Positions 8,977 to 28,798 of a stretch of 30,173 nucleotides of DNA are shown here, piece by piece. The notes beneath the pieces were generated by a model that saw nothing but the letters and a program-made list of their open reading frames with translations, searched no databases and had not been told where the DNA came from. How positions within the stretch are numbered: the stretch's first letter is position 1; each line of letters begins with the position of its first letter. The translations under genes were made by a program, and so were the position numbers. This DNA comes from Acidobacteriota bacterium (lineage in GTDB: Bacteria; Acidobacteriota; Vicinamibacteria; Vicinamibacterales; CAVVIG01): the NCBI GenBank assembly GCA_040349235.1, contig JBEQUD010000285.1, forward strand, positions 1-30,173, in the 5' to 3' direction.

Positions 8977-9039
8977 GAGCAGCAGGGCAACCAGAGAAAT
9001 AAAGCGAAGAACTTCTAGAACTCTTGGTTCTTTCCACGC

Positions 9040-9055
9040 AGGCACAGCACTTGCC
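9040..9055 (+). promoter_or_regulatory. Candidate sigma54 (-24/-12) promoter
   Basis: aGGCACagcacTTGCc matches TGGCAC-N5-TTGC with exact GG-N10-GC spacing; implied +1 near 9066, just before ATG 9067. Confidence 0.7.
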
Positions 9056-9066
9056 GTCAGGCGAGC

Positions 9067-9318
9067 ATGCCCGACCCCTTCGCCCGGTTCGTATCGGCCC
9101 GCAGTGTGTTCGTCGAAGATGCCGCCGCGCTGCTCGGCGTGTCGCGACGCACGATTTACTACCGGATTCGGGACGGGAAGCTCGCGACGATTCGTACCCG
9201 GGGCGGATCGCAGCGTGTGCTCGTCGAGTCGATCGGCGCGCTGTTGAGGCAGGAACGGCGGGCGAGGCAGGTGCGGGGGAGGACCGACGGCGTCAGAGCC
9301 CTAACCGATGGCGCTTGA
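9067..9318 (+). CDS. Small excisionase/BldC-like (MerR-type, HTH_17) DNA-binding protein, 83 aa
   Basis: VEDAAALLGVSRRTIYYRIRDGKLATIR pattern; 30/45 identical to the N-terminus of the subtilase at 14255-16324. Confidence 0.85.
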   Translation: MPDPFARFVSARSVFVEDAAALLGVSRRTIYYRIRDGKLATIRTRGGSQRVLVESIGALLRQERRARQVRGRTDGVRALTDGA

Positions 9319-12019
9319 GATACAGGCCCTTGCGTGAGATGCCCAGCGCCCGTGCCGCGGCGTCCACCCGGCCGTGGTGTTCTCGAAGGGCGACCTTGAT
9401 CATCTCGCGCTCGACCTGCGCGAGCGTGGTGTTGAGCTTGTTCGTCAGGCCAACCGCGATCTCGCGCCCGCCCGCGGGCGGTGTGGATGGGGTGCTGACC
9501 TCACGCGCCCGTCCGATGTCCGGAGACAGCAGACTCGTCGCGAGGACCGAGTGCGACTCGGCGATCGCGACGATCCGTCGGATCTCATTCTGGAGCTGCC
9601 GGACGTTGCCGGGCCATTCGTAGAGGACAAGCCGCTCCATCGCCTCCTCCGAGATGCGGACGTGCGTCTTCCTGAATTCCTCGGAGGCTCGCATCAGGAA
9701 GTTGCTCACGAGCGTCGGGATTTCGTCCCGCCGCTCGCGCAAGGGCCGCAGGGAGAGCCGGACGATGTTGAGCCGATAGAAAAGGTCTTCGCGGAAGCGT
9801 CCCTCTTTGACGAGGGCCTCGAGCTTCGAGTTGGTCGCCGCGACAATCCGCACGTCCACGACGAACGGCGCAGACTCGCCAAGCGGGCAGATCTCGCCGG
9901 ACTCCAGGAAGCGGAGCAGCTTGGGCTGCAACTCCAGGCTCAGTTCCCCGACTTCGTCGAGGAACAGCGTGCCATCCCGAGCGCTACGGATTACGCCAGG
10001 ATTGTCCCGATCCGCACCTGTGAAGGCCCCGCGGCGGTGACCGAACAACTGGCTCTCGAGCATCTCCCGTGGGATAGCCGCGCAGTTGAAGGGGACGAAG
10101 GGATGCTTGGCGCGACTCGAGTGTGTGTGGATGGCGCGCGCGACGACCTCCTTGCCCGTTCCGCTCTCGCCGGTGATGAGCACGCCGATGTTCGCGTGGG
10201 CGATCTTCTTCGCAAAGGTGATGACCTCGCGCATGTGACCGACCGTTACCGCGCCATCGCCGTCCGCCGGCAACTCGTCGATCGGCCAGAGCGTCGCGCG
10301 CTCCTCCCGCTCGGCCCGCGCGCATTCGAGGTCCCGCAGTGTCGCGACGATGAGGCCGATGGCGTTGACGGTTGCAATGGACTCGAGATCGTCTTTGGGT
10401 GTGAGCACGAGACTGACGTCTCGCTCCCCAGCCTTGCCGATCGCGACCCGCCGTCCGCCGCGCCGGCACCGTCGCTCGGGCTCCCCCGTTTCCGCCAGCG
10501 TCTCGACAACGCCATCGGTGCCGCGTGCCTCCGCTGCCGCGTGCCACACACTGCCTGTCTTGCCGAGCAGGTCGATCAACTCGGTCGCGATGAGGATGGG
10601 CCGACCAACATGGAGCGTGAGGGATGCCACGCTGTGCAGAGCGCTTGAGGGCGATAGGAATTGCTCGTCCGAATCTATCTCTGCGTTTGGGGAATTGGAA
10701 CACGCTCTTTCCCAAGCGTTCGCAAGCTCGAGCGCTCCGGCGTGATGCTGAAGGTCGCCAAAGATTCTTGCCGAGCGCCGGCGGTGGCAATCACCGGCGC
10801 CCATTTGGCCGGCTCGAACTGTCGCGCAGGCGAGAACTCGTTCATAGTGCGCAGAGAAATCTGGTGGCTGTTGAGGAATGGATAGCATGAGGTCTCGAAG
10901 AATCGAGCCACACTCATCCAATCGGCCGGCCTCCTGCAGGAAGTCCGCCTTCGATAGCGAGGCGATATTGCCGAAGAACTCGTCTTTTGCGCGCGTCGCG
11001 AGGCCGATCACAAATTCGATCTGACGGAGAGCTCCATCAATGTCGCCTTGTCGAGCCAATAAGACCGCGCGGGTCATCTGGGCGTGCCGGTATACGAACC
11101 TAGCCTGATCACCGCTCTCGCGCGCCTCCGACTCAATTTCATCAAGAACCCTAGCGCAGTTAGCGATGTGATCTTGTGCAAGATGAATACGAGCCAGAGT
11201 GTCAAGGCACCCTACCCAGGTATCCGATCCCCTCCTCGTTGTTCTTGCGCGCGTCAAGAAATCGTAGGCCTCGTCAAACCTTCCGGCAAGGTAGGCTAAG
11301 TGGCCGAGATTGCCAAGGGCACTCTCTCGAATGCTGGAAGCCCCGGCGTCCTCGGCGATGTCAAGCGACGTGCGCGCGTGCGTATTGGCTGCGACGAAGT
11401 TGGAGCACATTGTCTCGACCGCGCACGCCACATTCTCCACTAACGCCTCTAGCCAACGGTTTCCTGAGGAGGCCAGCCCGCGCCTTCCCATTTCCAGGTG
11501 GCGACGTGCGTTTCTCAGCAAACCCCGCTTGGCCTCTGTCTCCGAGACGTGGATATGAAGAGCGGCGACAATTCCAGAATTGCCGGTGTTCATAACGCGT
11601 GAGCGAAGTTCTGCCAGCATCGAGGCGATCGAATCCGGGCCAGAACGGTCGGAAAGGACGAGCAGGAGTCTCAACTGGGCCCAGCAAGCACGCTCTTGAT
11701 CATTGCCCTCAAGCGCAAGCGTCACCGCTCGCTGGAGTTGCGCGGTTGCAATTGCTGAATGGCCGTGCTCAATATTCACTCGGGCCAGCACGAGTTCACA
11801 GGAACTGCGCTCGGAGGGACTTAGGCCCTTCCCACGCAGCAGCGATTCCGCAAGCGCTGAACTCTTCTCGTATTGGCCTAGTCGTTCGAGTAGTTCTGCC
11901 CGTAGAACATCCGTCGATCGGCGGACGACGCCGATTGAGGCTGTATCTCGAAGAATTGCCAGCGCTTCTCTGAAGCGTCCCGCGTCGCGTAAGGCCTTGG
12001 CCTCATCCATGTGCACCAT
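9293..12019 (-). CDS. Sigma54-dependent activator (bEBP): TPR-like N-terminus + AAA+ + Fis HTH, no receiver domain
   Basis: Walker A GESGTGKE, FGHRRGAFTGA, Walker B LFLDEVGE, REDLFYRL, WPGNVRQLQN, C-terminal AAARALGISRKGLY; helical Ala/Leu repeats in the N-terminal ~470 aa. Start uncertain (TTG 12106, ATG 12019 or ATG 12010). Confidence 0.93.
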   Translation of the reverse strand: MVHMDEAKALRDAGRFREALAILRDTASIGVVRRSTDVLRAELLERLGQYEKSSALAESLLRGKGLSPSERSSCELVLARVNIEHGHSAIATAQLQRAVTLALEGNDQERACWAQLRLLLVLSDRSGPDSIASMLAELRSRVMNTGNSGIVAALHIHVSETEAKRGLLRNARRHLEMGRRGLASSGNRWLEALVENVACAVETMCSNFVAANTHARTSLDIAEDAGASSIRESALGNLGHLAYLAGRFDEAYDFLTRARTTRRGSDTWVGCLDTLARIHLAQDHIANCARVLDEIESEARESGDQARFVYRHAQMTRAVLLARQGDIDGALRQIEFVIGLATRAKDEFFGNIASLSKADFLQEAGRLDECGSILRDLMLSIPQQPPDFSAHYERVLACATVRAGQMGAGDCHRRRSARIFGDLQHHAGALELANAWERACSNSPNAEIDSDEQFLSPSSALHSVASLTLHVGRPILIATELIDLLGKTGSVWHAAAEARGTDGVVETLAETGEPERRCRRGGRRVAIGKAGERDVSLVLTPKDDLESIATVNAIGLIVATLRDLECARAEREERATLWPIDELPADGDGAVTVGHMREVITFAKKIAHANIGVLITGESGTGKEVVARAIHTHSSRAKHPFVPFNCAAIPREMLESQLFGHRRGAFTGADRDNPGVIRSARDGTLFLDEVGELSLELQPKLLRFLESGEICPLGESAPFVVDVRIVAATNSKLEALVKEGRFREDLFYRLNIVRLSLRPLRERRDEIPTLVSNFLMRASEEFRKTHVRISEEAMERLVLYEWPGNVRQLQNEIRRIVAIAESHSVLATSLLSPDIGRAREVSTPSTPPAGGREIAVGLTNKLNTTLAQVEREMIKVALREHHGRVDAAARALGISRKGLYLKRHRLGL

Positions 12020-12109
12020 TGCGTCGCTCGTTTCATGTGGGGTGAGAGCCAAACTCTTCCATATTCCGTAGCTGTTTTGGAAGTGATAATGGATGAGCCT
12101 CGACAAGAA

Positions 12110-12129
12110 GCGTGCAAATTGTGGGTGAC
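12110..12129. promoter_or_regulatory. Candidate operator GCGTGCAAATT-N3-GGTG (copy 1)
   Basis: 15/18 identical to 16530-16547; resembles the NtrC box TGCAC-N7-GTGCA. Confidence 0.45.
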
Positions 12130-12209
12130 CGAGAAGGCTGTGCCTGTCCCCCTCTCGGATCGCAACGCCCTCCGACGCCAGGGCAGGCCATGGCGTGGCC
12201 AGGCCGCGT

Positions 12210-14198
12210 CTAGCCCTCTTGGCGACGAACCACTACTGACCTGGCGGCGAACGGCACGGTGTCTAGTGCGCCGGCCACGATCTGTGTCTGGCAGATGTCA
12301 CCAAAACTATCCCACAGGGAATCATGGCCGCGCGCTATTGCTTCGAGCGCCCGTCGGTCGCCGTCGCTAAACCCATTCTCAGAGGCTGTGTAGAGGGTAA
12401 TCACTCCGAGGAATCGTTTGCTGCTGGTGAGCGGGGTGCTCAGGCACGCTTGGAGGCCGCGGTCTAATGCAATGTCTCCAAGGTCGAGGGCTGCCGCCGA
12501 ATTAAGGATGGTCTGGTTGTTCACGGCTACCCAACCACTCAGGCGCTGTCCCAGAGGTATTCTCAAGGTATCCAGGTCTGCCGCGCCGGCGCCGAACGCC
12601 GCCGCAACTTCTAGCTCGTCGATAGCTCGGTTGTTGATGAAAAGCACACCCAGTGAAAAATCAATCGACGCGCTCGTCAGCGCGCGCAAACGTTCTGTTG
12701 CGTCGAAATGAGACTGAAGCGCCAAAGAGTCTGGCATCGTGCCGTCGCTGCGCTTGCTCTCCTCCGGCAACCGGTGCGGAGCTTGAAAACTCGCCTGGGT
12801 GGCCGCGACGATCTCTCGAAGTGCGTGTCTAGGAGGCCCAAGCGATGTCTCTTTGGGCGCAATGTCCCTGTAGACCCTGGCGAAAGTATCCACGACTAGG
12901 GGATCGTACATTGATCCCCGTCTCTCCTGCAGGATGGCCAGTGCCGCCTCGTCGGAGAGGCGAGGACGATATGGTCTGTCTGATGTCAATGCATCGAAGC
13001 AATCGACAACCGAGAGAATCCTGGCGCCAATGGGGATGTTGGTTCCGCAAAGTCCCTCAGGATATCCGGTGCCATTCCAGCTTTCGTGGTGACACCTAAC
13101 GATGGGAACGACTGGATACGGAAAGTCGATCGCTCCGAGGATATCGGCGCCGATTGTTACGTGCAACTTCATTTTTTCAAACTCGACCGGCGTGAGCTTG
13201 CCCGGCTTGTTCAGGATGTACTCGGGTACAGCCAGCTTGCCCATGTCATGAAGCAAGGCGGCCGCCTCGATCGCCTTGATGAGCTTTTCATCGCTTACGC
13301 CAAGCTCCTTTGCGAGCCCGACCGCGTAAGCCTGCACCCGTCTAATGTGCCCGTGGGTGATCTGATCTTTGGCGTCTATCGCCATTGCCAGTGTTTCGAT
13401 CGTCGAGAGATACAGTGTGTTCAATTGCCCAACGTGTCTGTAGGCGTCCTCCACTCGTTCCATTGATGTCTTGAACGTGAAATAGAGCACAAGTAAGAGA
13501 GGCACCACGATCCCAACAAACCGCAAGTCGATGGTTCTGTTGTAGCCCACAAGGAGTACGGCGACTGACGCGCCGCAAAAGTAGTTGAGGGAAAGCCACA
13601 CGAACCCGTCACGCCAGACGTCAAGGACGTTTGCTCGTCGGTGGATGGCAATGCGCACAGCGATTAGTCCACTGTTGAGGCCGAAGTATGTAACTGCGAA
13701 CAGAACTAGAGACGGTAGGATCTGGTTCAGTGAGGCGGGCTGTTCGGACAGCGGCGCAATCCCGGAGGCCTTAAAGAATAGTTGCGCGGAGCACCAGGCT
13801 GACAATGCGGGCGCCGCTATATTGAACAGCACTCGCTCCACTTCCGGACGCCGTTTGGCTAGCCAGAAGGAGATAACCAGGCCGTCAAGGGCGACAGTGA
13901 GCGTTCCGGCTGATGGCCCGTATAGAAGGACGGCCGCGAAGACGAAGGCTTCGGAGATTGAGATGGTTACGTTCGTTCGAGGCAGTTCGACGCCGGCTGA
14001 GCCGCTGATCAGCGTCAGAAGACCAAGAAGCAACCATTGGGCGCCAATAGGTACGCGGTAAAGATGAACAAGGGATTCCCCGATCGCGAGGAATCCCATG
14101 AGGATCACGAGGAATACGAATGTCCTGCCGAGGCGAGACAAGGGTGAGCCAGTGGATGCCGTGGGCCAAGCAGTTATCGGTTGTTTAGTCCCAAACAA
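12210..14198 (-). CDS. HD-GYP cyclic dinucleotide phosphodiesterase with ~7-TM N-terminal sensor and C-terminal GAF
   Basis: DAKDQITHGH, LLHDMGK, HHESWNGTGYP, VDCFDALTSDRPYR all intact; hydrophobic N-terminal ~240 aa; GAF-like GLSGW-type segment (QRLSGWVAVN) and STPL...GVITLY...FSDGD. Start uncertain (TTG 14198). Confidence 0.92.
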   Translation of the reverse strand: MFGTKQPITAWPTASTGSPLSRLGRTFVFLVILMGFLAIGESLVHLYRVPIGAQWLLLGLLTLISGSAGVELPRTNVTISISEAFVFAAVLLYGPSAGTLTVALDGLVISFWLAKRRPEVERVLFNIAAPALSAWCSAQLFFKASGIAPLSEQPASLNQILPSLVLFAVTYFGLNSGLIAVRIAIHRRANVLDVWRDGFVWLSLNYFCGASVAVLLVGYNRTIDLRFVGIVVPLLLVLYFTFKTSMERVEDAYRHVGQLNTLYLSTIETLAMAIDAKDQITHGHIRRVQAYAVGLAKELGVSDEKLIKAIEAAALLHDMGKLAVPEYILNKPGKLTPVEFEKMKLHVTIGADILGAIDFPYPVVPIVRCHHESWNGTGYPEGLCGTNIPIGARILSVVDCFDALTSDRPYRPRLSDEAALAILQERRGSMYDPLVVDTFARVYRDIAPKETSLGPPRHALREIVAATQASFQAPHRLPEESKRSDGTMPDSLALQSHFDATERLRALTSASIDFSLGVLFINNRAIDELEVAAAFGAGAADLDTLRIPLGQRLSGWVAVNNQTILNSAAALDLGDIALDRGLQACLSTPLTSSKRFLGVITLYTASENGFSDGDRRALEAIARGHDSLWDSFGDICQTQIVAGALDTVPFAARSVVVRRQEG

Positions 14199-14211
14199 TT
14201 ATTGGCTTCAT
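14185..14211 (-). CDS. Putative micro-ORF MKPIIVWD
   Basis: ATG AAG CCA ATA ATT GTT TGG GAC TAA preceded by GAGAG; IVW-D resembles the adjacent SIVWS(G/D) repeats. Translation unproven. Confidence 0.3.
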   Translation of the reverse strand: MKPIIVWD

Positions 14212-14254
14212 GCGCTCTCGTCAACCCTCGGGTTTCGGGCGGCCACTCAGGAGC

Positions 14255-16324
14255 CTAGTCGAGTGTAGCGCCTGACCAAACAATGGATTGTCCGGTTGCG
14301 TCTGACCAAACGATGGACTGGCCTGTCGAGCCTGACCAGACAATGGATTGATTTGTCGCGTCGGACCAAACGATGGAGTCTGACCAAACAATTGATCCAG
14401 ACCACACGATAGACTTTGCATCGAGCATCTGGCTCGACCACTGGATGGGTTCATTTGAGCCCGACCACACGATTGAGTTTGCGCCGGGCGCTGCCCCAGA
14501 CCACACAATTGATCCCGACCAGACGATCGATCCCGACCAGACGATCGATCCCGACCAGACGATTGAATGTGGCGAGAGCCGTGAGCCCGACCAGACGATC
14601 GAGTCAGACCACACGATTGAATCAGGTCTCACTCTCGCCCCGGACCAGACGATCGAGACCGTACGGACGAGACTTCCGGACCAGACTATTGAATTCCCCA
14701 GTAAGAGCCGTTGGCCTCCTGGAGTGTTTCTTGCCAAGATTCCGCTGCCCACCGCCCTTTCTCCAGCGATCTGCGTCGCTGGCAACACTCCGTTAAGGCC
14801 GACTTCGATGAAGTCTGCAGCGGCGAGCACGTTCAGACTTCCAGAGCCACCATCAAGAATCCCGACCGCTGGCGAGAACGAGCTGGTGAGCTGCAGGATC
14901 GTCTTCGTTTCCCCCGGCTGTAGTCCGCCTCTTTCGTCCAGTAGTAACGCGGCGGCGCCGCTGACCACCGCCGCGGCCATGCTCGTGCCCGAGAGCTGCA
15001 TGTAGGCGTTGGCCCCGGTGCCGCTGACGTGCCGCTGCGGATAGTTCGTGCTGAGGTACGAGTTCGCGGATTCGGCCCCGTGGATGTGGGCGCCGGGCGC
15101 CGCGAGGTCCGGCTTCAGGACGCGATCGTAGGCGGTTGGGCCGCGCGAGCTCCAGGGGGCCACGGTGTCGTCCGAGCGCTGGGGTGTGTCGTGCGTGTCG
15201 AGGGCGCCGACCGTCAGGGCGTAGGGACTGTTGCCAGGGGACGTGATGCCGCCGATGACGTTCTTGCCGTCCGCGGTCTGGCCGAAATTGCCGGCCGCCG
15301 CGACGACGAGGATTCCGGCGCGCGTCGCCCGTTCGACGGCCTCGCACAGCGGGTCGTCGCGGAACGGCTGCAGGACGGGGGCGCCGAGCGACAGATTGAT
15401 GATGCGGATGTTGAACTGGCCGCGGTGGCGGATGGCCCAGTCGATGGCCTCGACGACGTCGCTTGCATTGCCGGAGCCGTCGGCGCCGAGGGCGCGCAGG
15501 TTGATCAGCCTGGCGCCGTACGCGATGCCGCGGTAGCTGGCCGCGGAGTTGCGCGAGAGACCGGCGATGATCGAGGCAACGTGGGTGCCGTGCCCGTAGC
15601 GGTCCTGGCCGTTGCCGCCGGTGAAGTCCACGGATGCCACGACGCGGTTGCGGAGCGCCGCGTGCGTCGTATCAATCCCGGAATCGATGACGGCGACGCC
15701 GACGCCGTTGCCCGAGAGCGGGTCGAGTGCGCCGGCGCCAGCCCATACCTGATCGGCGCCAATCGACTCCGCGGTGACGTCCGCGAGGGACTGCACGCGG
15801 CTGTCGCTCGAAAGGTGATCGATGGCGTCGTCCTGTTGCAGGGCGTCGAGCTGGCCGGAATTGACGCGGACGACCGCGCCGCTCTCCAACTTTCGCTTGA
15901 TGACAAGGTTGTACTTCCGGGCGATGCCGGTCACTTCCTGGTCGCTGCCGTGGACGATGACGTTGATGTCCTGTCCGCCTCGGTTCAGGCGGTCTGCCAG
16001 GTCCGAACTGAGTCGTGCGCGGTGCTGGGCAGCGGCGGGTCTGATGCAGAGCGCGAGTAATAGGACGGCCGTGCCGGCTGTGCGGGCTTGTTGCCGCCAC
16101 GCCGAGACTGGGGCTGGGGCGGGATCCCGCAATTCCACGATCGACTCGAGCAGCACGCGCTTGGATGCACCAAACGTTCGCACCGTCCGGAGGCGGCCCT
16201 CGCTGATCCTGCTGTACACCGTTCGGCGCGACACGCCGAGCAGCGCCGCCGCTTGGTCGATGGAAACGCTGCGACCGACGAGCACGTCGTGAGTCGGACG
16301 AGAGAAGTCCTGAGACAGGGGCAT
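14255..16324 (-). CDS. S8 subtilase with N-terminal HTH_17 domain, internal signal peptide, prodomain and C-terminal SIVWS repeat tail, 689 aa
   Basis: Catalytic triad VAVIDSGID, HGTHVA, GTSMAAA; oxyanion AAGN; GGAGG RBS before ATG 16324. Confidence 0.94.
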   Translation of the reverse strand: MPLSQDFSRPTHDVLVGRSVSIDQAAALLGVSRRTVYSRISEGRLRTVRTFGASKRVLLESIVELRDPAPAPVSAWRQQARTAGTAVLLLALCIRPAAAQHRARLSSDLADRLNRGGQDINVIVHGSDQEVTGIARKYNLVIKRKLESGAVVRVNSGQLDALQQDDAIDHLSSDSRVQSLADVTAESIGADQVWAGAGALDPLSGNGVGVAVIDSGIDTTHAALRNRVVASVDFTGGNGQDRYGHGTHVASIIAGLSRNSAASYRGIAYGARLINLRALGADGSGNASDVVEAIDWAIRHRGQFNIRIINLSLGAPVLQPFRDDPLCEAVERATRAGILVVAAAGNFGQTADGKNVIGGITSPGNSPYALTVGALDTHDTPQRSDDTVAPWSSRGPTAYDRVLKPDLAAPGAHIHGAESANSYLSTNYPQRHVSGTGANAYMQLSGTSMAAAVVSGAAALLLDERGGLQPGETKTILQLTSSFSPAVGILDGGSGSLNVLAAADFIEVGLNGVLPATQIAGERAVGSGILARNTPGGQRLLLGNSIVWSGSLVRTVSIVWSGARVRPDSIVWSDSIVWSGSRLSPHSIVWSGSIVWSGSIVWSGSIVWSGAAPGANSIVWSGSNEPIQWSSQMLDAKSIVWSGSIVWSDSIVWSDATNQSIVWSGSTGQSIVWSDATGQSIVWSGATLD
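14270..14692 (-). repeat. Intragenic repeat: 15 x SIVWS(G/D) plus one PIQWSS variant
   Basis: Counted from manual translation: 11 end in G and 4 in D; codons vary between copies; 18-nt tandem array at 14513-14566. Confidence 0.97.
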
Positions 16325-16353
16325 CGTGAAGTCCTCCGGTTTCCGTGTGTAAA

Positions 16354-16369
16354 CGCACGCCCGATACCA
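16354..16369 (-). promoter_or_regulatory. Candidate sigma54 promoter for the subtilase gene
   Basis: TGGTATcgggcGTGCG has GG-N10-GC spacing; implied +1 near 16343, about 19 nt before the ATG, with GGAGG in between. Weaker match than the 9040 site. Confidence 0.5.
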
Positions 16370-16405
16370 CACGGCGCACCCGGCAGGCGTTCGCTGTTTG
16401 TCTGC

Positions 16406-16529: not shown

Positions 16530-16549
16530 GCGTGCAAATTTCAGGTGCT
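16530..16549. promoter_or_regulatory. Candidate operator/enhancer GCGTGCAAATT-N3-GGTG (copy 2)
   Basis: TGCAaatttcaGGTGCt resembles the NtrC consensus; about 190 bp upstream of the implied +1. Confidence 0.45.
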
Positions 16550-21500: not shown

Positions 21501-23198
21501 TCAATCGGGCAAACCGAAGACGCACAGCGACAGCCCCGACACGGTGGCGACGTATTGTTTGCCGTCCACCGCGTAGGTCATCGGGCCGTTGATGATTTGC
21601 GCGCCGAGGCTCGCCTTCCACAAGAGGGTTCCCGTGCGGGCGTCGAGCGCCTGGAAGTAGCCCTCGCGGCCGCCCGCGAACAGGACGTCCGTGGCGGTCG
21701 TCAGGACGCCGCTGTCGGTGACGTCGGTCATGGGGAACTTCCATTTCTGTGCGCCCGTGGTGGGGTCCAGTGCGATCACGGCGCCGGTCGCGGCCGTTTC
21801 CGTCCAGTTGTTGATCGGGCCTCGGCGGCCCAGGCCCGGCAGGTCCGGGGCGCCGGGCACGGGTTCGAGCGGCCGGTGGCCGCCACCGCCGAAACCGCGC
21901 CCCTCTTGGTACTCCGCGGGGACGCTGTTGAAGAACATCGCGTAATTCTCCCAGGCGGAAAGGTAGAACAACTTCGTATGCGGGCTGTATGAGGGCGAAA
22001 ACCAGTTCGTCCCACCCTGATTGCCCGGCCACGTCGGCTGCCCCGGGGGTTGCGGCGTCTGGACGGGCCGCCCGTGCTCGTCGATGCCACTGGCCCAATT
22101 CAGCTTCACGAAGGGCTTGCCGAGCAGGAACTGTCCCGTCGCGCGATTCAAGACGTAGAAGTAGCCGTTCCGGTTCGCCCAGAGCATCGCCTTCAGCGGC
22201 GCGCCGCGCCACGTGATGTCGGCGAGCACCGGTACCTGCACGGCGTCGTAGTCGTAGCGATCGTGCGGCGTGAACTGGTAGTGCCACTTCAACGCACCCG
22301 TATCGGCATCGAGGGCGACGACCGAGTCGGTGTAGAGGTTGTCGCCGGGGCGCTGGTCGGCGTTGTAGTCGGGCCCTGCGTTGCCGACGCCCCAGTAGGT
22401 GAGGTTGAGTTCGGGATCGTACGACCCGGTTACCCAAATAGAGCCGCCGCCATGCTTCGCGGCGGCGGGGTCGCAGAATGTTGTCTGGGTGGGAGGGCAC
22501 GGCTCCCAGGTCTCGTATCCCGCCTCGCCGGGGCCAGGAATCGTGTAGAACCGCCAGGCCTCCTTGCCGCTGCGCGCGTCGTACGCGGCGATGAACCCGC
22601 GGATGCCGAACTCGCCGCCCCCGACGCCGATGAGCACTTTGTCCTTGATCACAAGCGGCGCCAGCGTGATCGAGTAGCCCGTCTTGTTGTCGGCCACCCT
22701 GACGTTCCACAGCGGGCGTCCCGACCTGGAGTCGATAGCGACGAGATGGGCGTCGAGGGTGCCCATATAGAGCGTGTCGCCGAGCATCGCGAGGCCGCGA
22801 TTGTTCGCCCCGCAGCAGACGAGTTGGACGGGATCGACCGCGTAGCGGTAGATCCAGAACACGCGCCCGGTCTTCGCATCGAGCGCGACGACGTCGTTCG
22901 GCCGCTGGGTCACGTACATGATGCCATCGACCACGAGCGGGCTCGTCTGCCACCCGCCTGCGGCCGCGGCCTGGTACATCCATTTCAATTCGAGGTTCTT
23001 GACGTTGGCCGTCGTGACCTGCGTGAGGGTGCTGTAGCGCTGGGACAGATACGTACCCGAGTAGGTGACCCAATTTGGCGCGTCCTTCGCGGCATTCAGC
23101 AGCCGGTCGTAGGTAACCTGGGCCTGCGCGGTGACGAGCGACGCGGCCCCCACGACGAATCCGAGGGCCGCGAGAACGAACCGTGACTGTGTGCGCAC
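21501..23198 (-). CDS. PQQ-dependent dehydrogenase (methanol/ethanol family), paralogue 3
   Basis: Signal peptide from GTG 23198 (GGAG RBS); VCCG vicinal cysteines; GGGEFG; WGVGN; HDRYDYD; Trp-docking repeats. Confidence 0.94.
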   Translation of the reverse strand: MRTQSRFVLAALGFVVGAASLVTAQAQVTYDRLLNAAKDAPNWVTYSGTYLSQRYSTLTQVTTANVKNLELKWMYQAAAAGGWQTSPLVVDGIMYVTQRPNDVVALDAKTGRVFWIYRYAVDPVQLVCCGANNRGLAMLGDTLYMGTLDAHLVAIDSRSGRPLWNVRVADNKTGYSITLAPLVIKDKVLIGVGGGEFGIRGFIAAYDARSGKEAWRFYTIPGPGEAGYETWEPCPPTQTTFCDPAAAKHGGGSIWVTGSYDPELNLTYWGVGNAGPDYNADQRPGDNLYTDSVVALDADTGALKWHYQFTPHDRYDYDAVQVPVLADITWRGAPLKAMLWANRNGYFYVLNRATGQFLLGKPFVKLNWASGIDEHGRPVQTPQPPGQPTWPGNQGGTNWFSPSYSPHTKLFYLSAWENYAMFFNSVPAEYQEGRGFGGGGHRPLEPVPGAPDLPGLGRRGPINNWTETAATGAVIALDPTTGAQKWKFPMTDVTDSGVLTTATDVLFAGGREGYFQALDARTGTLLWKASLGAQIINGPMTYAVDGKQYVATVSGLSLCVFGLPD

Positions 23199-23253
23199 GT
23201 TGTCTTCACTCCGACAGGACAGGACACTCGCCAACAGGCGGCCCAGGCTTTTG

Positions 23254-24948
23254 CTACTCGCGGAGGCCAAAGACGCACAGCGACAGGCCCGACACGGTGG
23301 CGACGTACTGTTTGCCATCCACCGCGTAGGTCGTGGGGGCGTTGATGATTTGCGCGCCGAGGCTCGCCTTCCACAAGAGGGTTCCCGTGCGGGCGTCGAG
23401 CGCCTGGAAGTACCCTTCGCGTCCGCCCGTGAACAGGAGGTCGGTCGCAGTCGTCAGGATGCCGCTGTCCGTCACGTCGGTCGTCGGGAATCGCCACTTC
23501 CGCTCGCCGGTCGTCGGGTCCAGGGCAATGACGGCGCCGCTCCCCGCGGTTTCCGTCCAGTTGTTGATCGGGCCGCGTCGGCCCAACCCCGCAAGCCCAG
23601 GGGCGCCCGGCACCGGTTCGACCGGACGGAGCACGCCGCCCCCGAAGCCGCGGCCTTCCTGGTATTCCGCCGGGAGCCCGCCAAAGATGGTCGCGTAGTT
23701 CTCCCACGCAGAGAGATAGAAGAGTCGTGTGCGCGGGCTGTAGGACGGTGAATACCAGTTCGTCCCCCCCTGATTGCCCGGCCACGTGGGCTGCCCAGGA
23801 GGCTGCGGTGTCTGAATCGGCCGCCCGTGCTCGTCAATCCCGCTCGACCAGTTGACCTTCACGAACGGCTTCCCGAGCAGGAACTGTCCGGTCTCCCGGT
23901 CCAACACGTAGAAGTACCCGTTGCGGTTGGCCCAGAACATCGCTTTCAGCGGCGCGCCGTGCCAGGTGATGTCCGCGAGCACGGGAACTTGAACGGAGTC
24001 GTAGTCGTAGCGGTCGTGCGGCGTGAACTGATAGTGCCACTTCAACGCGCCGGTGTCGGCGTCGAGCGCGACCACCGAATCCGTGTAGAGGTTGTCGCCG
24101 GGGCGCTGCTCTTGGTTGTAGTCCGGCCCGGCGTTGCCCACCCCCCAGTAGGTCAGGTTGAGCGCCGGATCGTACGACCCGGTCACCCACACGGAGCCGC
24201 CGCCATGTTTCCACGCGGACGGATCGCAGAATGTCTTTTGCGCGGCCGGGCACGCCTCCCATGTGTCGTATCCCGCCTCGCCCGGGCCGGGAATCGTGTA
24301 GAACCGCCAGACTTGCTTGCCGGTCCGCGCATCGTACGCGGCAACGAACCCGCGAATACCGAACTCGCCGCCGCCGACGCCCACGAGCACCTTGTCCTTG
24401 ACGACGAGCGGCGCGAGCGTCACGGAGTAGCCCGCCTTGTTATCCGCCACGGCGATGTTCCAGATGGGCCGTCCCGTCTTCGCGTCGATGGCCACGAGGC
24501 GCGCGTCGAGAGTCCCCATGAAGAGCGTGTCGCCGAGCATGGCCAGGCCGCGATTGTTCGCCCCGCAGCAGACGATCTGCGTGGGGTCCAGCGTATGGCG
24601 GTAGATCCAGAACACGCGCCCGGTCTTGGCGTCGAGTGCGACGACGTCGTTCGGCCGCTGGGTCACGTACATGATGCCGTCAACGACGAGCGGGCTCGTC
24701 TGCCAGCCTCCTGGGGCCGCGGCCTGGTACATCCATTTCAGCTCGAGGTTCTTCACGTTCGCCGGCGTGATCTGGGCGAGCGTGCTGTGCCGCTGGGAGA
24801 AATAGGTGCCGGAATAGGTGATCCAGTTCTGGGCGTCTCTGGCCGCGTTCACCAGGCGGTCTGAGGTAACTTGGGCGTGTGCGCGGACGGCGAGCGCTGC
24901 CACGAGCAGGGCGACCGTTCGTGCGACCGTTGCACGTCGAGTCATCAT
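23254..24948 (-). CDS. PQQ-dependent dehydrogenase, paralogue 2
   Basis: Start MMTRR overlaps the cytochrome stop (ATGATGA); same motifs as paralogue 3. Confidence 0.94.
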   Translation of the reverse strand: MMTRRATVARTVALLVAALAVRAHAQVTSDRLVNAARDAQNWITYSGTYFSQRHSTLAQITPANVKNLELKWMYQAAAPGGWQTSPLVVDGIMYVTQRPNDVVALDAKTGRVFWIYRHTLDPTQIVCCGANNRGLAMLGDTLFMGTLDARLVAIDAKTGRPIWNIAVADNKAGYSVTLAPLVVKDKVLVGVGGGEFGIRGFVAAYDARTGKQVWRFYTIPGPGEAGYDTWEACPAAQKTFCDPSAWKHGGGSVWVTGSYDPALNLTYWGVGNAGPDYNQEQRPGDNLYTDSVVALDADTGALKWHYQFTPHDRYDYDSVQVPVLADITWHGAPLKAMFWANRNGYFYVLDRETGQFLLGKPFVKVNWSSGIDEHGRPIQTPQPPGQPTWPGNQGGTNWYSPSYSPRTRLFYLSAWENYATIFGGLPAEYQEGRGFGGGVLRPVEPVPGAPGLAGLGRRGPINNWTETAGSGAVIALDPTTGERKWRFPTTDVTDSGILTTATDLLFTGGREGYFQALDARTGTLLWKASLGAQIINAPTTYAVDGKQYVATVSGLSLCVFGLRE

Positions 24949-25733
24949 CGCCCCTTGAGCGACAGCAAGTACGCCAGCAGGTCCGCCGCTTCTTCGTCGG
25001 TCAGCTTGCCCTTGTAGGACGGCATCGGCGACACGGTGCGGATGGTGTACTCGCGGAGGTCCGCCTTGGTCAGCGAGACCAGGCGTTCCTGGTCGTCGAT
25101 CAACTGCACGGTGTAGGTGTCTTCGTTCAGCCGCCGGCCGTTGATGACGCGGCCGTCCCGCGTGACCGCGTGCACCGGGCGATTGATGGGCATCATCTGG
25201 CTGGACGGGTCCATCAGCGTGCGCATGATCGACCCGGCGCCGCGCGTCGCGCCGATGTCGCTCAGGTCCGGTGCGGCGCGGGGCCCCCGGGCGCCCACGC
25301 GGTGGCAGTGCCCGCAGTCGCCCTTGCCTTCGAAGACCTGCTGGCCGCGGACGGCATCGCCCGGCTTCACCGACGAGCGATCGAAGGCGTTGATGTTGCG
25401 GAGATACGCGATGACGCCCGCCAACTCCGACGCGTCGAACTTGAAGGCCGGCATGCCCTTGCCCGCGACCCCGTTCGTGATGACGCCGGCCAGGTCGCGG
25501 TCGGTCACCGCGGTGTGGAACTTGCCGGTCTTGAAGTCGATGCCGCCCACGCCGTCGCCGTTCGGCCCGTGGCACGTGGTGCACTGCGAGTCATATAGGC
25601 GTGCGCCGTAGGCGATGTCGGCGGGGGCATAGTCCTCGGGATGGCCGTTTCCGGGCGCTTGCGCGGCGAGGGATGTCGAGCCCAGGACGGCAAGGCCGAG
25701 AACCGCGAGAAGTCGAAGTGCGTGTCTGTGCAT
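24945..25733 (-). CDS. Periplasmic di-haem cytochrome c with Pirellula/Verrucomicrobium-type haem-binding domain
   Basis: Signal peptide; CTTCH and CGHCH; candidate axial Met in GMPAF and SPMPSY. Confidence 0.88.
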   Translation of the reverse strand: MHRHALRLLAVLGLAVLGSTSLAAQAPGNGHPEDYAPADIAYGARLYDSQCTTCHGPNGDGVGGIDFKTGKFHTAVTDRDLAGVITNGVAGKGMPAFKFDASELAGVIAYLRNINAFDRSSVKPGDAVRGQQVFEGKGDCGHCHRVGARGPRAAPDLSDIGATRGAGSIMRTLMDPSSQMMPINRPVHAVTRDGRVINGRRLNEDTYTVQLIDDQERLVSLTKADLREYTIRTVSPMPSYKGKLTDEEAADLLAYLLSLKGR

Positions 25734-25760: not shown

Positions 25761-27446
25761 CTACTCGTGCAAGCCGAAGACGCACAGTGACAAGCCAGAG
25801 ATGGTCGCCACATATTGCTTGCCGTCGATTTCGTAGGTGATAGGTCCGTTGACCACTTGTCCGCCCAGGATGGTTTTCCACAGGAGTGTGCCGCTACGGG
25901 CATCCATGGCCTGGAAGTAGCCGTCGTTGGTGCCCGCGAACAGGACGTCCGAGGCGGTCGTCAAGATGCCGCTCTCGTTGCCGTCGTGCAGCGGGAACTT
26001 CCATTTCAGTTTGCCGGTGGTTGCATCGAGGGCCATGATGGCCCCGCTGCCCACGGCTTCGGTCCACGTGTTGATCGGGCCGCGACGGAAGCCCGGGGAT
26101 GTCGGCGCACCCGGCACGGGCACGAACGGTGTGGGCCCACCGCCGCCGAAGATGCGGCCTTCGACGTAGTCCGAGCGGCTGCTCTTCACGATGGCCGCGA
26201 AGTTCTCCCAGACGGACAGGTAGAAGAGGCCCGTGCGAGGACTGTACGACGGCGAATACCAGTTGGTGCCCCCCGGGCTACTCGGCCACGTCGGCTGCCC
26301 TTCGGCCTGCGGTGTTTGAATGGGTCGCCCGCCCTCGTCGAAGCCGCTGGCCCAGTTGAGTTTGATGAAGGGCTCCGCCTGCAGGAACTTTCCGGTTGCG
26401 CGGTCCAGGAGGTAGAAGTAGCCGTTGCGGTTGGCCCACAACATCGCCTTGAGCGGCGCGCCGTGCCACGTGAGATCGGCGAGCACCGGAATCTGAACGG
26501 CGTCGTAGTCGTACCGATCCTGCGGGGTGAATTGATAGTGCCACTTCAGCGTCCCTGTATCGGCGTCGAGTGCGACCACCGAGGTGGTGTAGAGGTTGTC
26601 ACCGGGCCGCTGAAACGGGTTGTAGTCGGGACCAGGGTTGCCCGTGCCCCAGTACGTCAGGTTGAGCGTGGGATCGTACGAGCCCGTGACCCAGACGGCG
26701 CCGCCTCCGTGTTTCCACGCCTCGGGGTCGCAGTAGGTGGTCGGCTTCTCTGGGCACGCTTGCCATGTTTCGAACCCGGGCTCGCCCGGGCCAGGCACCA
26801 TGTAGGACCGCCACGCTTCCTTGCCGCTGTGGGCGTCATACGCCGCGACGAAGCCGCGCACACCGAAGTCGCTGCCGCCCACGCCGAGGAGCACCTTGTC
26901 CTTTACGACGAGGGGCGCCATGGTCACCGAGTAGCCGGTCCGACCCTCCGCGATCTTCGTATTCCACACCGGCCGGCCGGTCTTCGTATCGATGGCGATG
27001 AGATGCGCGTCGAGCGTGCCCAGAAAGAGCGTGTCGCCCAAGATGGCAAGCCCGCGATTGTTCGCCCCGCAGCAGACGATCTGGACGGGATCGAGCGTGG
27101 GGTGGTAGATCCAGAACACGCGGCCGGTCTTCGCGTCGAGCGCGACGACGTCGTTCGGTCGCTGCGTGACGTACATGACGCCATCGACGACGAGCGGTGT
27201 GGCCTCCCAGCCGCCGGGCACGGCGCCCTGGTACATCCATTTCAGCTCGAGGTTCTTTGCGTTGGCAGGTGTGATTTGGGCGAGCGTGCTGTAGCGCTGG
27301 CTCGCGTAGGTACCCGAATACGTGATCCAGTTGCGGGCATCGCGGCCGGCGTTCAACAGACCATCCGCGGTCACCTGCGCGCGTGCCGCCGGCGCGATGG
27401 TGAGCGTCAGGAGGAGGCCCAAGCCGACCCAGGACCGTTGGTGCAT
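25761..27446 (-). CDS. PQQ-dependent dehydrogenase, paralogue 1
   Basis: VCCG, GGSDFG, WGTGN, QDRYDYD; signal peptide. Start ATG 27446 or 27497. Confidence 0.94.
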   Translation of the reverse strand: MHQRSWVGLGLLLTLTIAPAARAQVTADGLLNAGRDARNWITYSGTYASQRYSTLAQITPANAKNLELKWMYQGAVPGGWEATPLVVDGVMYVTQRPNDVVALDAKTGRVFWIYHPTLDPVQIVCCGANNRGLAILGDTLFLGTLDAHLIAIDTKTGRPVWNTKIAEGRTGYSVTMAPLVVKDKVLLGVGGSDFGVRGFVAAYDAHSGKEAWRSYMVPGPGEPGFETWQACPEKPTTYCDPEAWKHGGGAVWVTGSYDPTLNLTYWGTGNPGPDYNPFQRPGDNLYTTSVVALDADTGTLKWHYQFTPQDRYDYDAVQIPVLADLTWHGAPLKAMLWANRNGYFYLLDRATGKFLQAEPFIKLNWASGFDEGGRPIQTPQAEGQPTWPSSPGGTNWYSPSYSPRTGLFYLSVWENFAAIVKSSRSDYVEGRIFGGGGPTPFVPVPGAPTSPGFRRGPINTWTEAVGSGAIMALDATTGKLKWKFPLHDGNESGILTTASDVLFAGTNDGYFQAMDARSGTLLWKTILGGQVVNGPITYEIDGKQYVATISGLSLCVFGLHE

Positions 27447-27577
27447 GCGTCTCAGGCAGCCTCGTGCGCGTGGCGGAAGCAATTGCATCATCCCCATGCG
27501 CGTCACTATAGCGCCAACCGCTGCCGCCAGTGAGGACGTTGTGCCGAGTGGCGACAATCGACCGTTCCGCCGATCGG

Positions 27578-28798
27578 TCAGCGCTGCGCGACTGTCTGCG
27601 TCGCCGCGGCGGTCGGCGCGTGCGGCGGCGGCACACGCGACGCGACATACGCAGCGATGGACACCATGTCGTCCTTGGTCAAGTTCGCCACGACCAGCTT
27701 CATCAGCTGCGCGGAGGCGCCGTTGCGCGTGCCGCTCTGGATGTCCCACATCTGCCGGACGATATAGCTCGGCGAGCGGCCGGCAATCGGCGGCACGTCG
27801 CCGACGCCCATGAGATCAGCGCCGTGGCACGTGCCGCACGCGGTGGTCTTTCCCTGGACGATCTGGTTCCCGACGATGCGCATCCCTCCGGTCGTGACTA
27901 GTGCCTCGCCCGCCTTGATGCTGCCAGTTGGGACGTACGCGACAAAACCCACATGGGGATTGCGATATTTCTCGACCTGTTCGTCGTTCTCGGGGACCTC
28001 GATGATGCGTCCGGCGATGGGCTCGGTCCGGGCGGTCTCTGTGGCGTGGAACATGCCTCCGGCGATGCGCGTCTTCGGAACCAGCTTCGTTTCGACCACG
28101 CGGATCCAGGGCGACCACTCGAGCGAGGAGAAATAGCCGGCGGCGGCATTCAGTTCCTCCTCGGTCATCGACTTTGCGAGTTCGATCATGAGGTTGGTGT
28201 TGCTCTTCCGGGGATCGGACGTATAGCGGAGGCCGCTCCGGAAATCGTGGATCTGTCGCAGGATGTAGGCAGCGGGGAGCCCGGCCGTCGGCGCGTTCTC
28301 GGGGCGGCCCTTGCCCGTCGGCAGGTGGCACGAGCCGCAGCCGCGCGCGGTGTCGCCCATGCGCGCCGGGCCGTGCTTGACGACATTGGGCATCGGCGGA
28401 TGGTCGTTCGGGAACCAGTCGATGACGTTGTGCCCGTCGCGCACATCGAGGAACGAATAGGACGCGGGGCTCCCGTCGATGCGTCTGGGCTTGGCTTGCT
28501 CGGGATCGACGGCTGCCGGTGCATTGCGTGCCTGGGCGGCTGGCGGCGGCGCCGTCTCGCCGGGTTTGGGTGGGGCGTCATAGCCGTACGCCCAGGTCGG
28601 CTCACGCTCGAACTGCTCCGCCGGAACAGTGATGCGCTTCGCGACGGCGACGGCTGCGGGCGCGACTTCAACCGGCGGCTTGGCCGCCTGGGTGACCGGC
28701 TGTGGCGCTGGCCTGCTGCTGTCGTACCAGCGCTGCACGGCGGCACCAAGCCCGAAACCGACGATTCCCACGATAACGGCGCTGACGCCCCGATTCAT
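27578..28798 (-). CDS. Di-haem cytochrome c (c4/c553-like) with N-terminal anchor and Pro/Ala linker
   Basis: GGAGG RBS before ATG 28798; CGSCH and CGTCH; AGLPAAYILRQ and IAGRSPSYIVRQ c4-type motifs. Confidence 0.88.
   Translation of the reverse strand: MNRGVSAVIVGIVGFGLGAAVQRWYDSSRPAPQPVTQAAKPPVEVAPAAVAVAKRITVPAEQFEREPTWAYGYDAPPKPGETAPPPAAQARNAPAAVDPEQAKPRRIDGSPASYSFLDVRDGHNVIDWFPNDHPPMPNVVKHGPARMGDTARGCGSCHLPTGKGRPENAPTAGLPAAYILRQIHDFRSGLRYTSDPRKSNTNLMIELAKSMTEEELNAAAGYFSSLEWSPWIRVVETKLVPKTRIAGGMFHATETARTEPIAGRIIEVPENDEQVEKYRNPHVGFVAYVPTGSIKAGEALVTTGGMRIVGNQIVQGKTTACGTCHGADLMGVGDVPPIAGRSPSYIVRQMWDIQSGTRNGASAQLMKLVVANLTKDDMVSIAAYVASRVPPPHAPTAAATQTVAQR

Follow-up and report, generated by a model that had tools for sequence, protein, structure and literature searches.

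Pherotype regions such as agrB-agrD-agrC of staphylococci and comQXP of Bacillus are the variable segments of peptide quorum-sensing operons, and serotype cassettes such as the O-antigen and capsule loci, which have an atypically low GC content, are swapped via recombination in conserved flanking genes. The locus described here recalls both. It is located in a 30,173-nt stretch of DNA of an Acidobacteriota bacterium (order Vicinamibacterales; contig JBEQUD010000285.1 of the assembly GCA_040349235.1), which is referred to at its full length as the window. Its three genes, all on the minus strand, encode a peptidase of the S8 family (subtilase) with a repetitive C-terminal tail, a membrane-bound HD-GYP protein, and a sigma-54 activator with an N-terminal TPR region. 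A block at 10601..14945 (minus strand) has a low GC content at third codon positions (GC3) and comprises the complete HD-GYP gene together with the adjoining parts of its two neighbours, namely the C-terminal part of the S8 protein with its repeat tail and the activator's TPR region. The best explanation overall, to which we assign a probability of about 0.75, is that the Vicinamibacterales have a conserved three-gene cassette and that this block forms its variable core, which is exchanged as a block and has a standing low GC3.

As in agr and comQXP, the variable central segment starts and ends inside genes, with conserved parts of the operon around it, the allele types are incongruent with the background phylogeny in a manner pointing to recombination in conserved flanks, and a membrane sensor module adjoins a short repeated peptide-coding segment. 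Two hallmarks of a pherotype locus were found here, namely the intragenic ends of the variable segment and the conflict between allele and flank trees. In contrast to agr and comQXP, no signal peptide, modifying enzyme or histidine kinase was identified in this locus: a subtilase bears the candidate signal as a repeat tail, and the sensor is fused to an HD-GYP domain. Further differences are the phylum, a second variable module (the TPR region on the sigma-54 activator), and the presence of a highly conserved catalytic domain in the block. The likeness to agr and comQXP which had been proposed from the letters of the window alone (hereafter the sequence-only reading) applies to the evolutionary pattern and is limited to it. 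With serotype cassettes the locus shares ancient allelic cassettes at a fixed site, apparent switching of whole blocks and a GC content persistently below that of the genome; however, those cassettes encode surface-polysaccharide synthesis and have their breakpoints in the flanking genes, whereas the breakpoints described here are inside multidomain regulatory genes and the content consists of signalling domains. Our literature search found no paper describing such a cassette and nothing directly on GC in pherotype regions. New here are the content, the phylum, the conserved catalytic domain in the block, and an order-wide compositional step at homologous intragenic positions.

In the explanation we favour, the core consists of old, deeply diverged allelic types at a fixed locus. 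Homologous recombination has moved them between lineages, with crossovers on one side in the conserved catalytic core of the S8 protein and on the other in the linker/AAA+ region of the activator. The flanks and the neighbouring genes descend vertically, and the core itself is mosaic, its parts being the tail with the membrane sensor, the HD-GAF part and the TPR region. The low GC3 is a long-standing property of the core in every species examined and not a sign of recent foreign origin.

The compositional step in the window is sharp. GC had been counted by hand in five 60-nt lines, and the counts (45, 35, 27, 31 and 47) were reproduced exactly. Bulk GC is 0.54-0.60 between approximately 10500 and 15000 and 0.64-0.72 on both sides. 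With a GC of 0.577, the block 10600-14950 is under the 0.1 percentile (0.595) of 1137 four-kb windows of the genome (2.83 Mb, 68% GC), and it is the lowest-GC 4-kb stretch of this genome. A two-change-point likelihood fit to the 2307 codons of the three minus-strand genes placed the maximum-likelihood GC3 change points at 14945 and 10601, where the sequence-only reading had expected steps at about 14950 and 10600. GC3 is 0.631 inside and 0.851 outside these points, and the log-likelihood ratio of 69.9 compares with a maximum of 9.9 in 60 permutations. The step is an effect of the third codon position and not of amino-acid content. For the HD-GYP gene alone, GC3 is 0.65 at an open reading frame (ORF) mean of 0.84 (sd 0.065), roughly the 1st-2nd percentile of the filtered ORFs; since the genome-wide ORF ranking retains some shadow frames after filtering, we relied on the 4-kb window statistic instead.

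Both breaks are intragenic, at approximately residue 476 of the S8 protein and residue 502 of the activator. The upstream breakpoint (14855..14963, minus strand; interval of 2 log-likelihood units, lnL) lies just past the catalytic-Ser motif of the S8 protein. The stretch GTSMAAAVVSGAA, which carries this motif, corresponds to S8 residues 462-474 (window 14989-14951), and the change point is five bases past its last codon. The rare codons that were claimed to follow the catalytic motif are indeed there (TTA at residue 476, CTA at 477, AGA at 481 and CTA at 484). The downstream breakpoint (2-lnL interval 10583..10643, minus strand) is at the junction between TPR region and linker of the sigma-54 activator, about 120 codons ahead of the AAA+ core.

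An abrupt change of composition in a genome of 503 contigs and 69% completeness can be caused by misassembly, and both breaks adjoin highly conserved motifs, within which a chimeric contig could have joined a high-GC to a lower-GC organism. However, the same valley is present at homologous positions in 49 loci (see below), several of which are on megabase-scale contigs (2.1-5.35 Mb, e.g. L049 and L098). In addition, both fitted change points are crossed by unitigs from runs of two different studies (X1 and X2) with 0-1 differences to the window. These were found among Logan contigs of four public runs, with a depth of 2-4x and pieces of 150-1300 nt. An X1 unitig (14556-15197, 0 differences) covers the entire upstream support interval, one X2 unitig (14641-14965) spans the fitted break at 14945, and a second one (10483-10742) crosses the downstream breakpoint. 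Many loose ends of unitigs at approximately 9940-10190 correspond to AAA+ cores of other organisms. We therefore consider an assembly chimera to be practically negligible as an explanation.

The valley is a feature of the order and recurs in about 50 related Acidobacteria from soil. We compared 80 species-representative related loci (labelled L0xx), almost all of them labelled Acidobacteriota or Vicinamibacterales. The cassette was found in most of the 80 loci and is syntenic in other genera of the family and of the order, where every genome compared was of a different genus. In 49 of the 49 loci with every segment scorable, GC3 was high in the flanks (0.867±0.055) and low in the centre (0.612±0.048), the smallest difference between flank and centre being 0.09. 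A GC3 meta-profile of 44-50 species, calculated in coordinates of the window proteins, showed 0.88-0.90 in the S8 core, 0.63-0.77 in the S8 post-catalytic part and tail, 0.55-0.69 over the whole HD-GYP gene, 0.56-0.63 in the TPR region, 0.67-0.78 in the linker, and 0.80-0.88 in the AAA+ core and C-terminal end. In the window, the high-GC3 flanks correspond to the S8 pro-region and catalytic core (14946..16060, minus strand; GC3 0.9) and to the AAA+ core with the DNA-binding end of the activator (9296..10246, minus strand; GC3 0.84), while the TPR region (activator residues 1-500; 10607..12106, minus strand) has a GC3 of 0.61. Many species show the upstream step about 30-60 codons further into the gene than the window does.

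No protein segment is more conserved than the HD catalytic domain (77-91% amino-acid identity to the window), yet its GC3 of 0.55-0.66 is among the lowest. The proposal that the block comprises the tail, the HD-GYP gene and the TPR region is thus right, but it had also been described as purely the variable signal and sensor part, and this does not apply since the most conserved domain lies inside. The valley is confined to this locus and absent from paralogues: six HD-GYP paralogues in the window genome have GC3 values of 0.85-0.92, and paralogous S8-HD-GYP pairs in relatives have 0.81-0.90.

Two side observations concern the valley. The HTH-coding 5' part of the protease gene (window approximately 16100-16330) has a GC3 of 0.60-0.69 in other species (occupancy about 0.4) and of 0.77-0.83 in the window, which hints at a second, smaller GC3 dip at the 5' end of this gene. 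Further, L052, L059, L096 and L110 are contigs of 3-6.5 kb with a GC of 0.56-0.58, which consist almost only of the valley. Such short valley-only contigs in public metagenome-assembled genomes (MAGs) bear labels of Fimbriimonas, Bryobacteraceae, Blastocatellia or Planctomycetota, and longer related loci are labelled Betaproteobacteria, Bifidobacterium or Gemmatimonadaceae. Probably the atypical GC leads to assembly breaks and to mis-binning of valley contigs; if so, valley blocks may be fragmenting assemblies and getting mis-binned in public MAGs.

The sequence-only reading had taken the low-GC stretch to be a replaced block. A recent horizontal import from a lower-GC donor, as an island or as gene replacement in this genome or its close kin, would be in line with the position of the block as the lowest-GC 4-kb stretch of the genome and with the abrupt start of rare codons. 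However, the low GC does not mark a replacement private to this genome: the valley was found to be a standing feature of the cassette across the order, and it is order-wide although synonymous sites are saturated between species. Relatives share the genes, their order and their site. Genomic islands are recognized by their absence at the same site in relatives; here the same genes and neighbours were present in 26-65 of the 80 loci, depending on the gene. The S8 gene is adjacent in 65 of 80 loci, and the chromosomal site is fixed by a DHDPS-family gene upstream (34 loci) and by a gene for a small helix-turn-helix (HTH) protein (36 loci) and an Nramp gene (26 loci) downstream. No tRNA is present in the window and no direct repeats were found at the block ends at 10600 or 14950. 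The scan of ten of the other window ORFs against Pfam, in which integrase and transposase genes were not specifically sought, revealed no recombinase family, and the HTH_17/excisionase-like domain is a part of the protease. Finally, the allele type of the window is that of the nearest relatives scored, L036 and L053, and nothing suggests that the window genome is a recent recombinant. Recent import is thus very improbable. The synteny in relatives and the lack of a tRNA and of direct repeats at the ends agree with the earlier preference for homologous recombination over island insertion, and taken with the trees described below, block exchange by homologous recombination in conserved flanks is well supported as the mode of exchange.

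To compare the histories of the segments, maximum-likelihood trees of 36 taxa were calculated for the S8 core, the HD-GYP gene, the TPR region and the AAA+ core and were compared by approximately unbiased (AU) tests; the Nramp and DHDPS genes next to the cassette, aligned for 20 taxa, provided a two-gene background tree. The two flanks, which are 4.3 kb apart, agree with each other: 11 of 13 strong splits of the S8-core tree recur in the AAA+ tree and one is in conflict. Between the HD-GYP tree and either flank tree there are 8-12 strong split conflicts in either direction. When constrained to the other trees, the S8-core alignment is worse by 86 lnL with the AAA+ topology, by 819 with that of the HD-GYP gene and by 492 with that of the TPR region; for the AAA+ alignment the drop is 278 with the S8-core, 961 with the HD-GYP and 534 with the TPR topology. 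For the Nramp and DHDPS alignment, the AAA+ tree is acceptable (delta 25, p-AU 0.075) and the S8-core tree is not far off (52), but those of the HD-GYP gene (384) and of the TPR region (432) are rejected. Conversely, with the HD-GYP alignment the background, S8 and AAA+ trees are all rejected, each with a deficit of at least 750 lnL. These results show that both flanks have been inherited together with the neighbouring genes and that the TPR region has a tree of its own. Congruent phylogenies of all domains, which would have spoken against exchange, were not obtained: the HD-GYP gene, especially its sensor part, and the TPR region reject the flank trees by hundreds of lnL.

The strongest signal of the centre comes from the membrane sensor of the HD-GYP protein (residues 20-250; 13449..14141, minus strand), which is the most strongly swapped module. 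Its alignment loses about 1100 lnL on the S8 and AAA+ trees. The sensor sequences fall into three deep types, here named alpha, beta and gamma, which are discrete and strongly supported clades uniting non-sister genomes and splitting sisters. For example, L036 has an alpha and L082 a beta sensor, and L051 and L061 have alpha sensors and L094 a beta sensor. The pairwise identities of the flank segments are correlated with each other (rho 0.54-0.74), whereas the sensor identity is bimodal and correlated with nothing; within clade I its correlation with flank identity has a rho of about 0.

L036 and L082, which both flank trees as well as the background tree place as sisters, allow the junctions to be located. 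Their DNA identity is 0.80-0.93 over most of the S8 core, fades to 0.78 at residues 456-495 of the window protein, and collapses at about S8 residues 475-535, reaching 0.41-0.54 by residues 500-556. It is low through the tail, the sensor (42% at the amino-acid level) and the TPR region, with higher values of 0.64-0.83 in the conserved HD domain alone, and is back abruptly to 0.84 at about residue 491 of the activator. The junctions, at approximately 14900 and 10640 of the window, coincide with the GC3 steps. Synonymous distances (dS) between the two genomes are 0.41-0.57 in the flanks and at or near saturation in the centre (2.1 in the transmembrane segment, the other segments being saturated). 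Since the NG86 dS understates flank distances at a GC3 near 0.9, composition-corrected distances at four-fold sites were added. In the flanks these are 0.39 for L036/L082 and 0.50 for L049/L050, and in the valley they range from at least 1.5 up to saturation, even between loci which share the sensor type.

Could such conflicts arise without any exchange, in a locus which descends vertically but has a faster centre due to relaxed or diversifying selection and relaxed codon bias, so that the conflicts would be artefacts of saturation? The centre segments are indeed fast-evolving, with identities of about 20-50% in the TPR region, and according to our estimate the relaxed GC3 pressure should lift the synonymous rate about two-fold. 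However, discrete and supported sensor clades which unite non-sisters and split sisters (L036/L082; L051 and L061/L094) are not expected from a rate increase, which alone cannot place L082 among other beta types, and the bimodality of sensor identity, uncorrelated with flank identity in clade I, is difficult to reconcile with it. We regard strictly vertical descent as rather improbable, although less so than recent import.

The sequence-only reading had assumed a single replaced block. The exchange itself is in line with our trees, but the block is not uniform, since three histories can be told apart in it: that of the tail with the sensor, that of the HD-GAF part and that of the TPR region. 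The tree of the short post-catalytic segment of the S8 protein (residues 486-565) departs less from the flank trees (delta 61-80) than from the sensor tree (129); the segment is transitional and, in most species, lies outside the swapped sensor block.

Hidden paralogy offers another way to discordant trees, either by differential loss of ancestral copies of the cassette or of the HD-GYP gene, or by ectopic conversion between paralogues in one genome. Many genomes have a second full-length HD-GYP homologue beside an S8 gene, and in L058 a second S8-HD-GYP pair is located directly downstream of the activator gene. Nevertheless, none of the 80 loci contains two HD-GYP genes between the S8 and activator genes, and the paralogous pairs examined have no adjacent TPR activator of their own and a normal GC3. 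Their similarity is low, with identities of about 72% for the HD domain and 34-36% for the sensor; because of this and their normal GC3, they are not the source of the valley alleles. Moreover, sisters of differing type at a flank dS of about 0.4 would require that both copies were kept until very recently. Hidden paralogy is therefore unlikely, to a degree similar to strictly vertical descent or marginally less so. In clade II loci (L054, L056, L060, L062, L069, L079 and others), an extra S8 paralogue in opposite orientation was observed about 5 kb upstream.

What keeps the GC3 of the core low is a separate question. The four-fold sites of the valley consist of approximately 20% A, 31% C, 29% G and 20% T, alike in the HD-GYP gene and in the TPR region; in the flanks, A accounts for 4-6% and T for 5-6%. 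The valley is thus a general loss of the bias for G/C-ending codons which affects A and T alike, without enrichment of any single rare codon. Taken together, the order-wide presence of the valley, its absence from paralogues, the low GC3 of the most conserved HD domain and the equality of A and T at four-fold sites exclude four candidate causes: amino-acid composition, expression at the level of the gene, codon selection of the accuracy type on conserved residues, and strand-asymmetric mutation.

The cause we favour is escape from GC-biased gene conversion. Diverged alleles would be unable to form heteroduplexes, and the core would thereby escape the GC-biased gene conversion linked to recombination, or an equivalent pressure, which would hold the rest of the genome at a GC3 of about 0.85-0.9. 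An association between recombination and GC in bacterial genes has been published (PMC4450053). Lassalle et al. 2015 (PMC4450053) put forward the hypothesis of GC-biased gene conversion from a statistical trend at the level of genes: within one genome, sequence in which no homologous recombination is evident is lower in GC3 than recombining sequence, independently of codon-usage selection. Different from this trend, the locus described here has a sharp intragenic GC3 step of about 0.25 at homologous positions in about 50 species, and its link to gene conversion is inferred.

Two other causes have to be weighed. Selection could keep A/T-ending codons, for slow or conditional translation, for properties of the mRNA, or for binding of a silencing nucleoid protein. 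This would fit a valley which is conserved over the whole order, covers the strongly constrained HD domain and has a composition nearly independent of host GC3. On the other hand, the shift is uniform over all codon families, A and T are about equal and no rare codon is enriched; the steps are within reading frames, so that both sides of a step must be expressed at one level; the preferred codons of the genome are not used at the most conserved residues; and, as a mild argument, L063 and L094 retain the cassette with a largely normal GC3 of the HD-GYP gene. As a cause of the valley, selection for A/T-ending codons is possible but doubtful. The second alternative is a shared lower-GC gene pool. 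The correlation between valley GC3 and the flank GC3 of the host is weak (rho 0.24), and this value does not separate selection for A/T-ending codons from a shared lower-GC pool.

Several points weigh against block exchange of old alleles with a standing low GC3. Only two species pairs are close enough for informative synonymous distances, and beyond them the flanks are near saturation. A faster synonymous rate in the valley, which relaxed GC3 pressure could cause, may explain part of the excess divergence; as this rate effect would be only about two-fold, most of the excess would nevertheless be due to older alleles. The tree of the HD and GAF domains is poorly resolved and rejects all other trees moderately (151-282 lnL). 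A scan of JGI metagenomes with the S8 core yielded a best relative with 78% identity and no conspecific genomes or near-identical contigs. The weak tie between valley and host GC3 would also fit a shared foreign gene pool. Finally, the HD-GYP gene of L063 has a nearly normal GC3 of 0.77-0.86, so the valley can be lost; the HD-GYP gene of L094 has 0.60-0.80. In both loci, which are sisters in the sensor tree, the TPR region is still low in GC3 (0.62-0.65).

A conserved intragenic GC3 step in about 50 species with saturated synonymous sites is a rare natural experiment. Since the step is within genes and the paralogues do not have it, expression level, gene function and amino-acid content are controlled. 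Thus, whether selection or biased gene conversion is behind the high GC of bacteria, a matter of debate, becomes directly testable at one locus.

The repeat tail is the candidate for a signal. In the window it comprises about 15 SIVWS(G/D) units (14255..14700, minus strand), recognized from the translation, from 18-nt periodic repeats and from the tails of orthologues. Tandem terminal units of the form x-(I/V/L)-(I/V/L/F)-W-x-x were present in all eight orthologues which were examined first and in 31 of the 36 tree taxa. Within a protein the units are homogenised, and they differ between most species, examples being SIVWSG, SIVWGN, TVIWGD, SIFWGT, TIIWGQ, SIVWTD and ILVWGN. The changes required at the residue after Trp number 6 on the sensor tree, compared with 10 when the tree of its own S8 core is used; these counts were reached by 0 of 300 and by 33 of 300 label shuffles, respectively. 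The flank sisters L093/L058, L060/L054 and L079/L071 are each split, with ILVWGN and a gamma-1 sensor in one and S-x-VWT-(D/N) and a gamma-2 sensor in the other. Since tail and sensor are adjacent, the tracking of the sensor by the tail indicates their co-inheritance as a block. Their co-variation is compatible with matching between signal and receptor, and linkage alone could explain it. As a side observation, the TIIWGQ units of L029 (8400-8986) are broken by runs such as ATPSSGVRA. These look like repeat DNA in another frame, and thus like a frameshift within the repeats of a long contig.

It is tempting to speculate that the cassette is an undescribed peptide-specificity (pherotype) system of Acidobacteriota, with the footprints of balancing selection and of escape from gene conversion; we put this forward tentatively, as a reading of fairly low probability. 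Cleavage of the repeat tail (units such as SIVWSG, TVIWGD or SIVWTD) by the subtilase that carries it would release numerous copies of one short Trp peptide, which would be read by the membrane HD-GYP sensor, by the TPR domain of the sigma-54 activator, or by both. Long-term balancing selection on matched signal and receptor alleles would then block homologous pairing in the block. Matching of a species-specific repeat peptide to the neighbouring sensor or TPR modules may drive the diversification, a suggestion weaker than that of escape from gene conversion. If the pherotype reading proves true, bacterial escape from GC-biased gene conversion would have left a direct, unusually clean footprint in the order-wide GC3 valley.

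The RRNPP receptors (Rap, NprR, PlcR and PrgX) are cytoplasmic TPR peptide receptors. As in these proteins, the TPR domain described here is fused to a transcription regulator, is highly variable and is encoded beside a candidate pro-peptide. However, the output here is a sigma-54 AAA+ activator and the TPR matches are generic only, and by the sequence tests which were run the locus does not appear to be a member of the RRNPP family. To our knowledge, little is understood about cell-cell signalling in Acidobacteriota. The locus therefore represents a concrete signalling candidate, which is widespread across an order and has the evolutionary signature of a specificity system.

The domain assignments of the three proteins are as follows. 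The protease (14255..16372, minus strand; 705 aa) is composed of HTH_17, a membrane segment, peptidase S8 and the repeat tail, according to Pfam and the translation. The match to Peptidase_S8 (PF00082; residues 221-497, 2.3e-52, 178.6 bits at a cut-off of 21.8) and the motifs HGTHV and GTSMA in the translation place it among the subtilases; its excisionase-type HTH_17 match (residues 37-80) has an E-value of 2.3e-07. A single-sequence AlphaFold2 model of residues 100-705 had a mean pLDDT of 38.9 and was too poor for use; the tail, with pLDDT of about 50-57 and short strands, did not distinguish between a folded repeat domain and a cleavable pro-peptide.

The second protein (12210..14198, minus strand; 662 aa), the gene of which is entirely within the valley, combines a MASE9-like membrane part with an HD-GYP (HD_5) domain and a GAF domain. 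It belongs to the HD_5 family (PF13487; 5.3e-41, 140.6 bits at a cut-off of 27.2) and matches GAF_2 (2.2e-09), while the MASE9 match (1.4e-03) is below its cut-off. The motif HHE..GTGYP is present and invariant across the alignment, and from its domains the protein is predicted to be a cyclic di-GMP (c-di-GMP) phosphodiesterase. Most orthologues have about 170 extra C-terminal residues resembling a degenerate GGDEF domain (compare L024-L030). The protein of the window (3' end of the gene at 12210-12330) and that of L033 stop directly after the GAF domain, and the GAF region of the window is unusually divergent.

The activator (9293..12106, minus strand; 937 aa) has a TPR, sigma-54 AAA+ and Fis-type HTH architecture in Pfam. 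It is assigned to the sigma-54 activators by the match to Sigma54_activat (PF00158; residues 624-784, 5.3e-66, 221.9 bits) and by its GAFTGA loop, and it also matches AAA_lid_14 and HTH_8 (PF02954, 45.6 bits). The TPR matches at residues 19-385 are to generic profiles only and are below or near the cut-offs; the identity of the TPR region between species is 20-51%.

A conserved sigma-54 promoter was not found: the strict pattern GGCAC-N5-TTGC occurs upstream of the small HTH gene in the window only (9041-9054) and in no other loci, and a looser pattern has 10 matches in the window compared with 11.6 expected from shuffles. The small HTH gene (9024..9623, plus strand) is convergent with the activator gene and overlaps its 3' end. 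Its product is a paralogue of the N-terminal HTH of the protease, with 61% identity to S8 residues 31-81. The two HTH-coding segments form inverted arms of 136 nt (9100-9235 and 16138-16273), which are 71% complementary and bracket the three-gene cassette. An 18-nt box (GCGTGCAAATT...GGTG) is present at 12110-12127 and 16530-16547 in the same orientation, with 15 of 18 positions identical. The two boxes stand upstream of the activator and protease genes, one within the valley and one outside. At a distance from the cassette, the window contains three large tandem ORFs on the minus strand with a common repeated sequence (21501-23318, 23254-25584 and 25761-27749). Their repeats recur at offsets of 1753 and 2504 nt, and each of the three ORFs is about 41% identical to one gene of L038.

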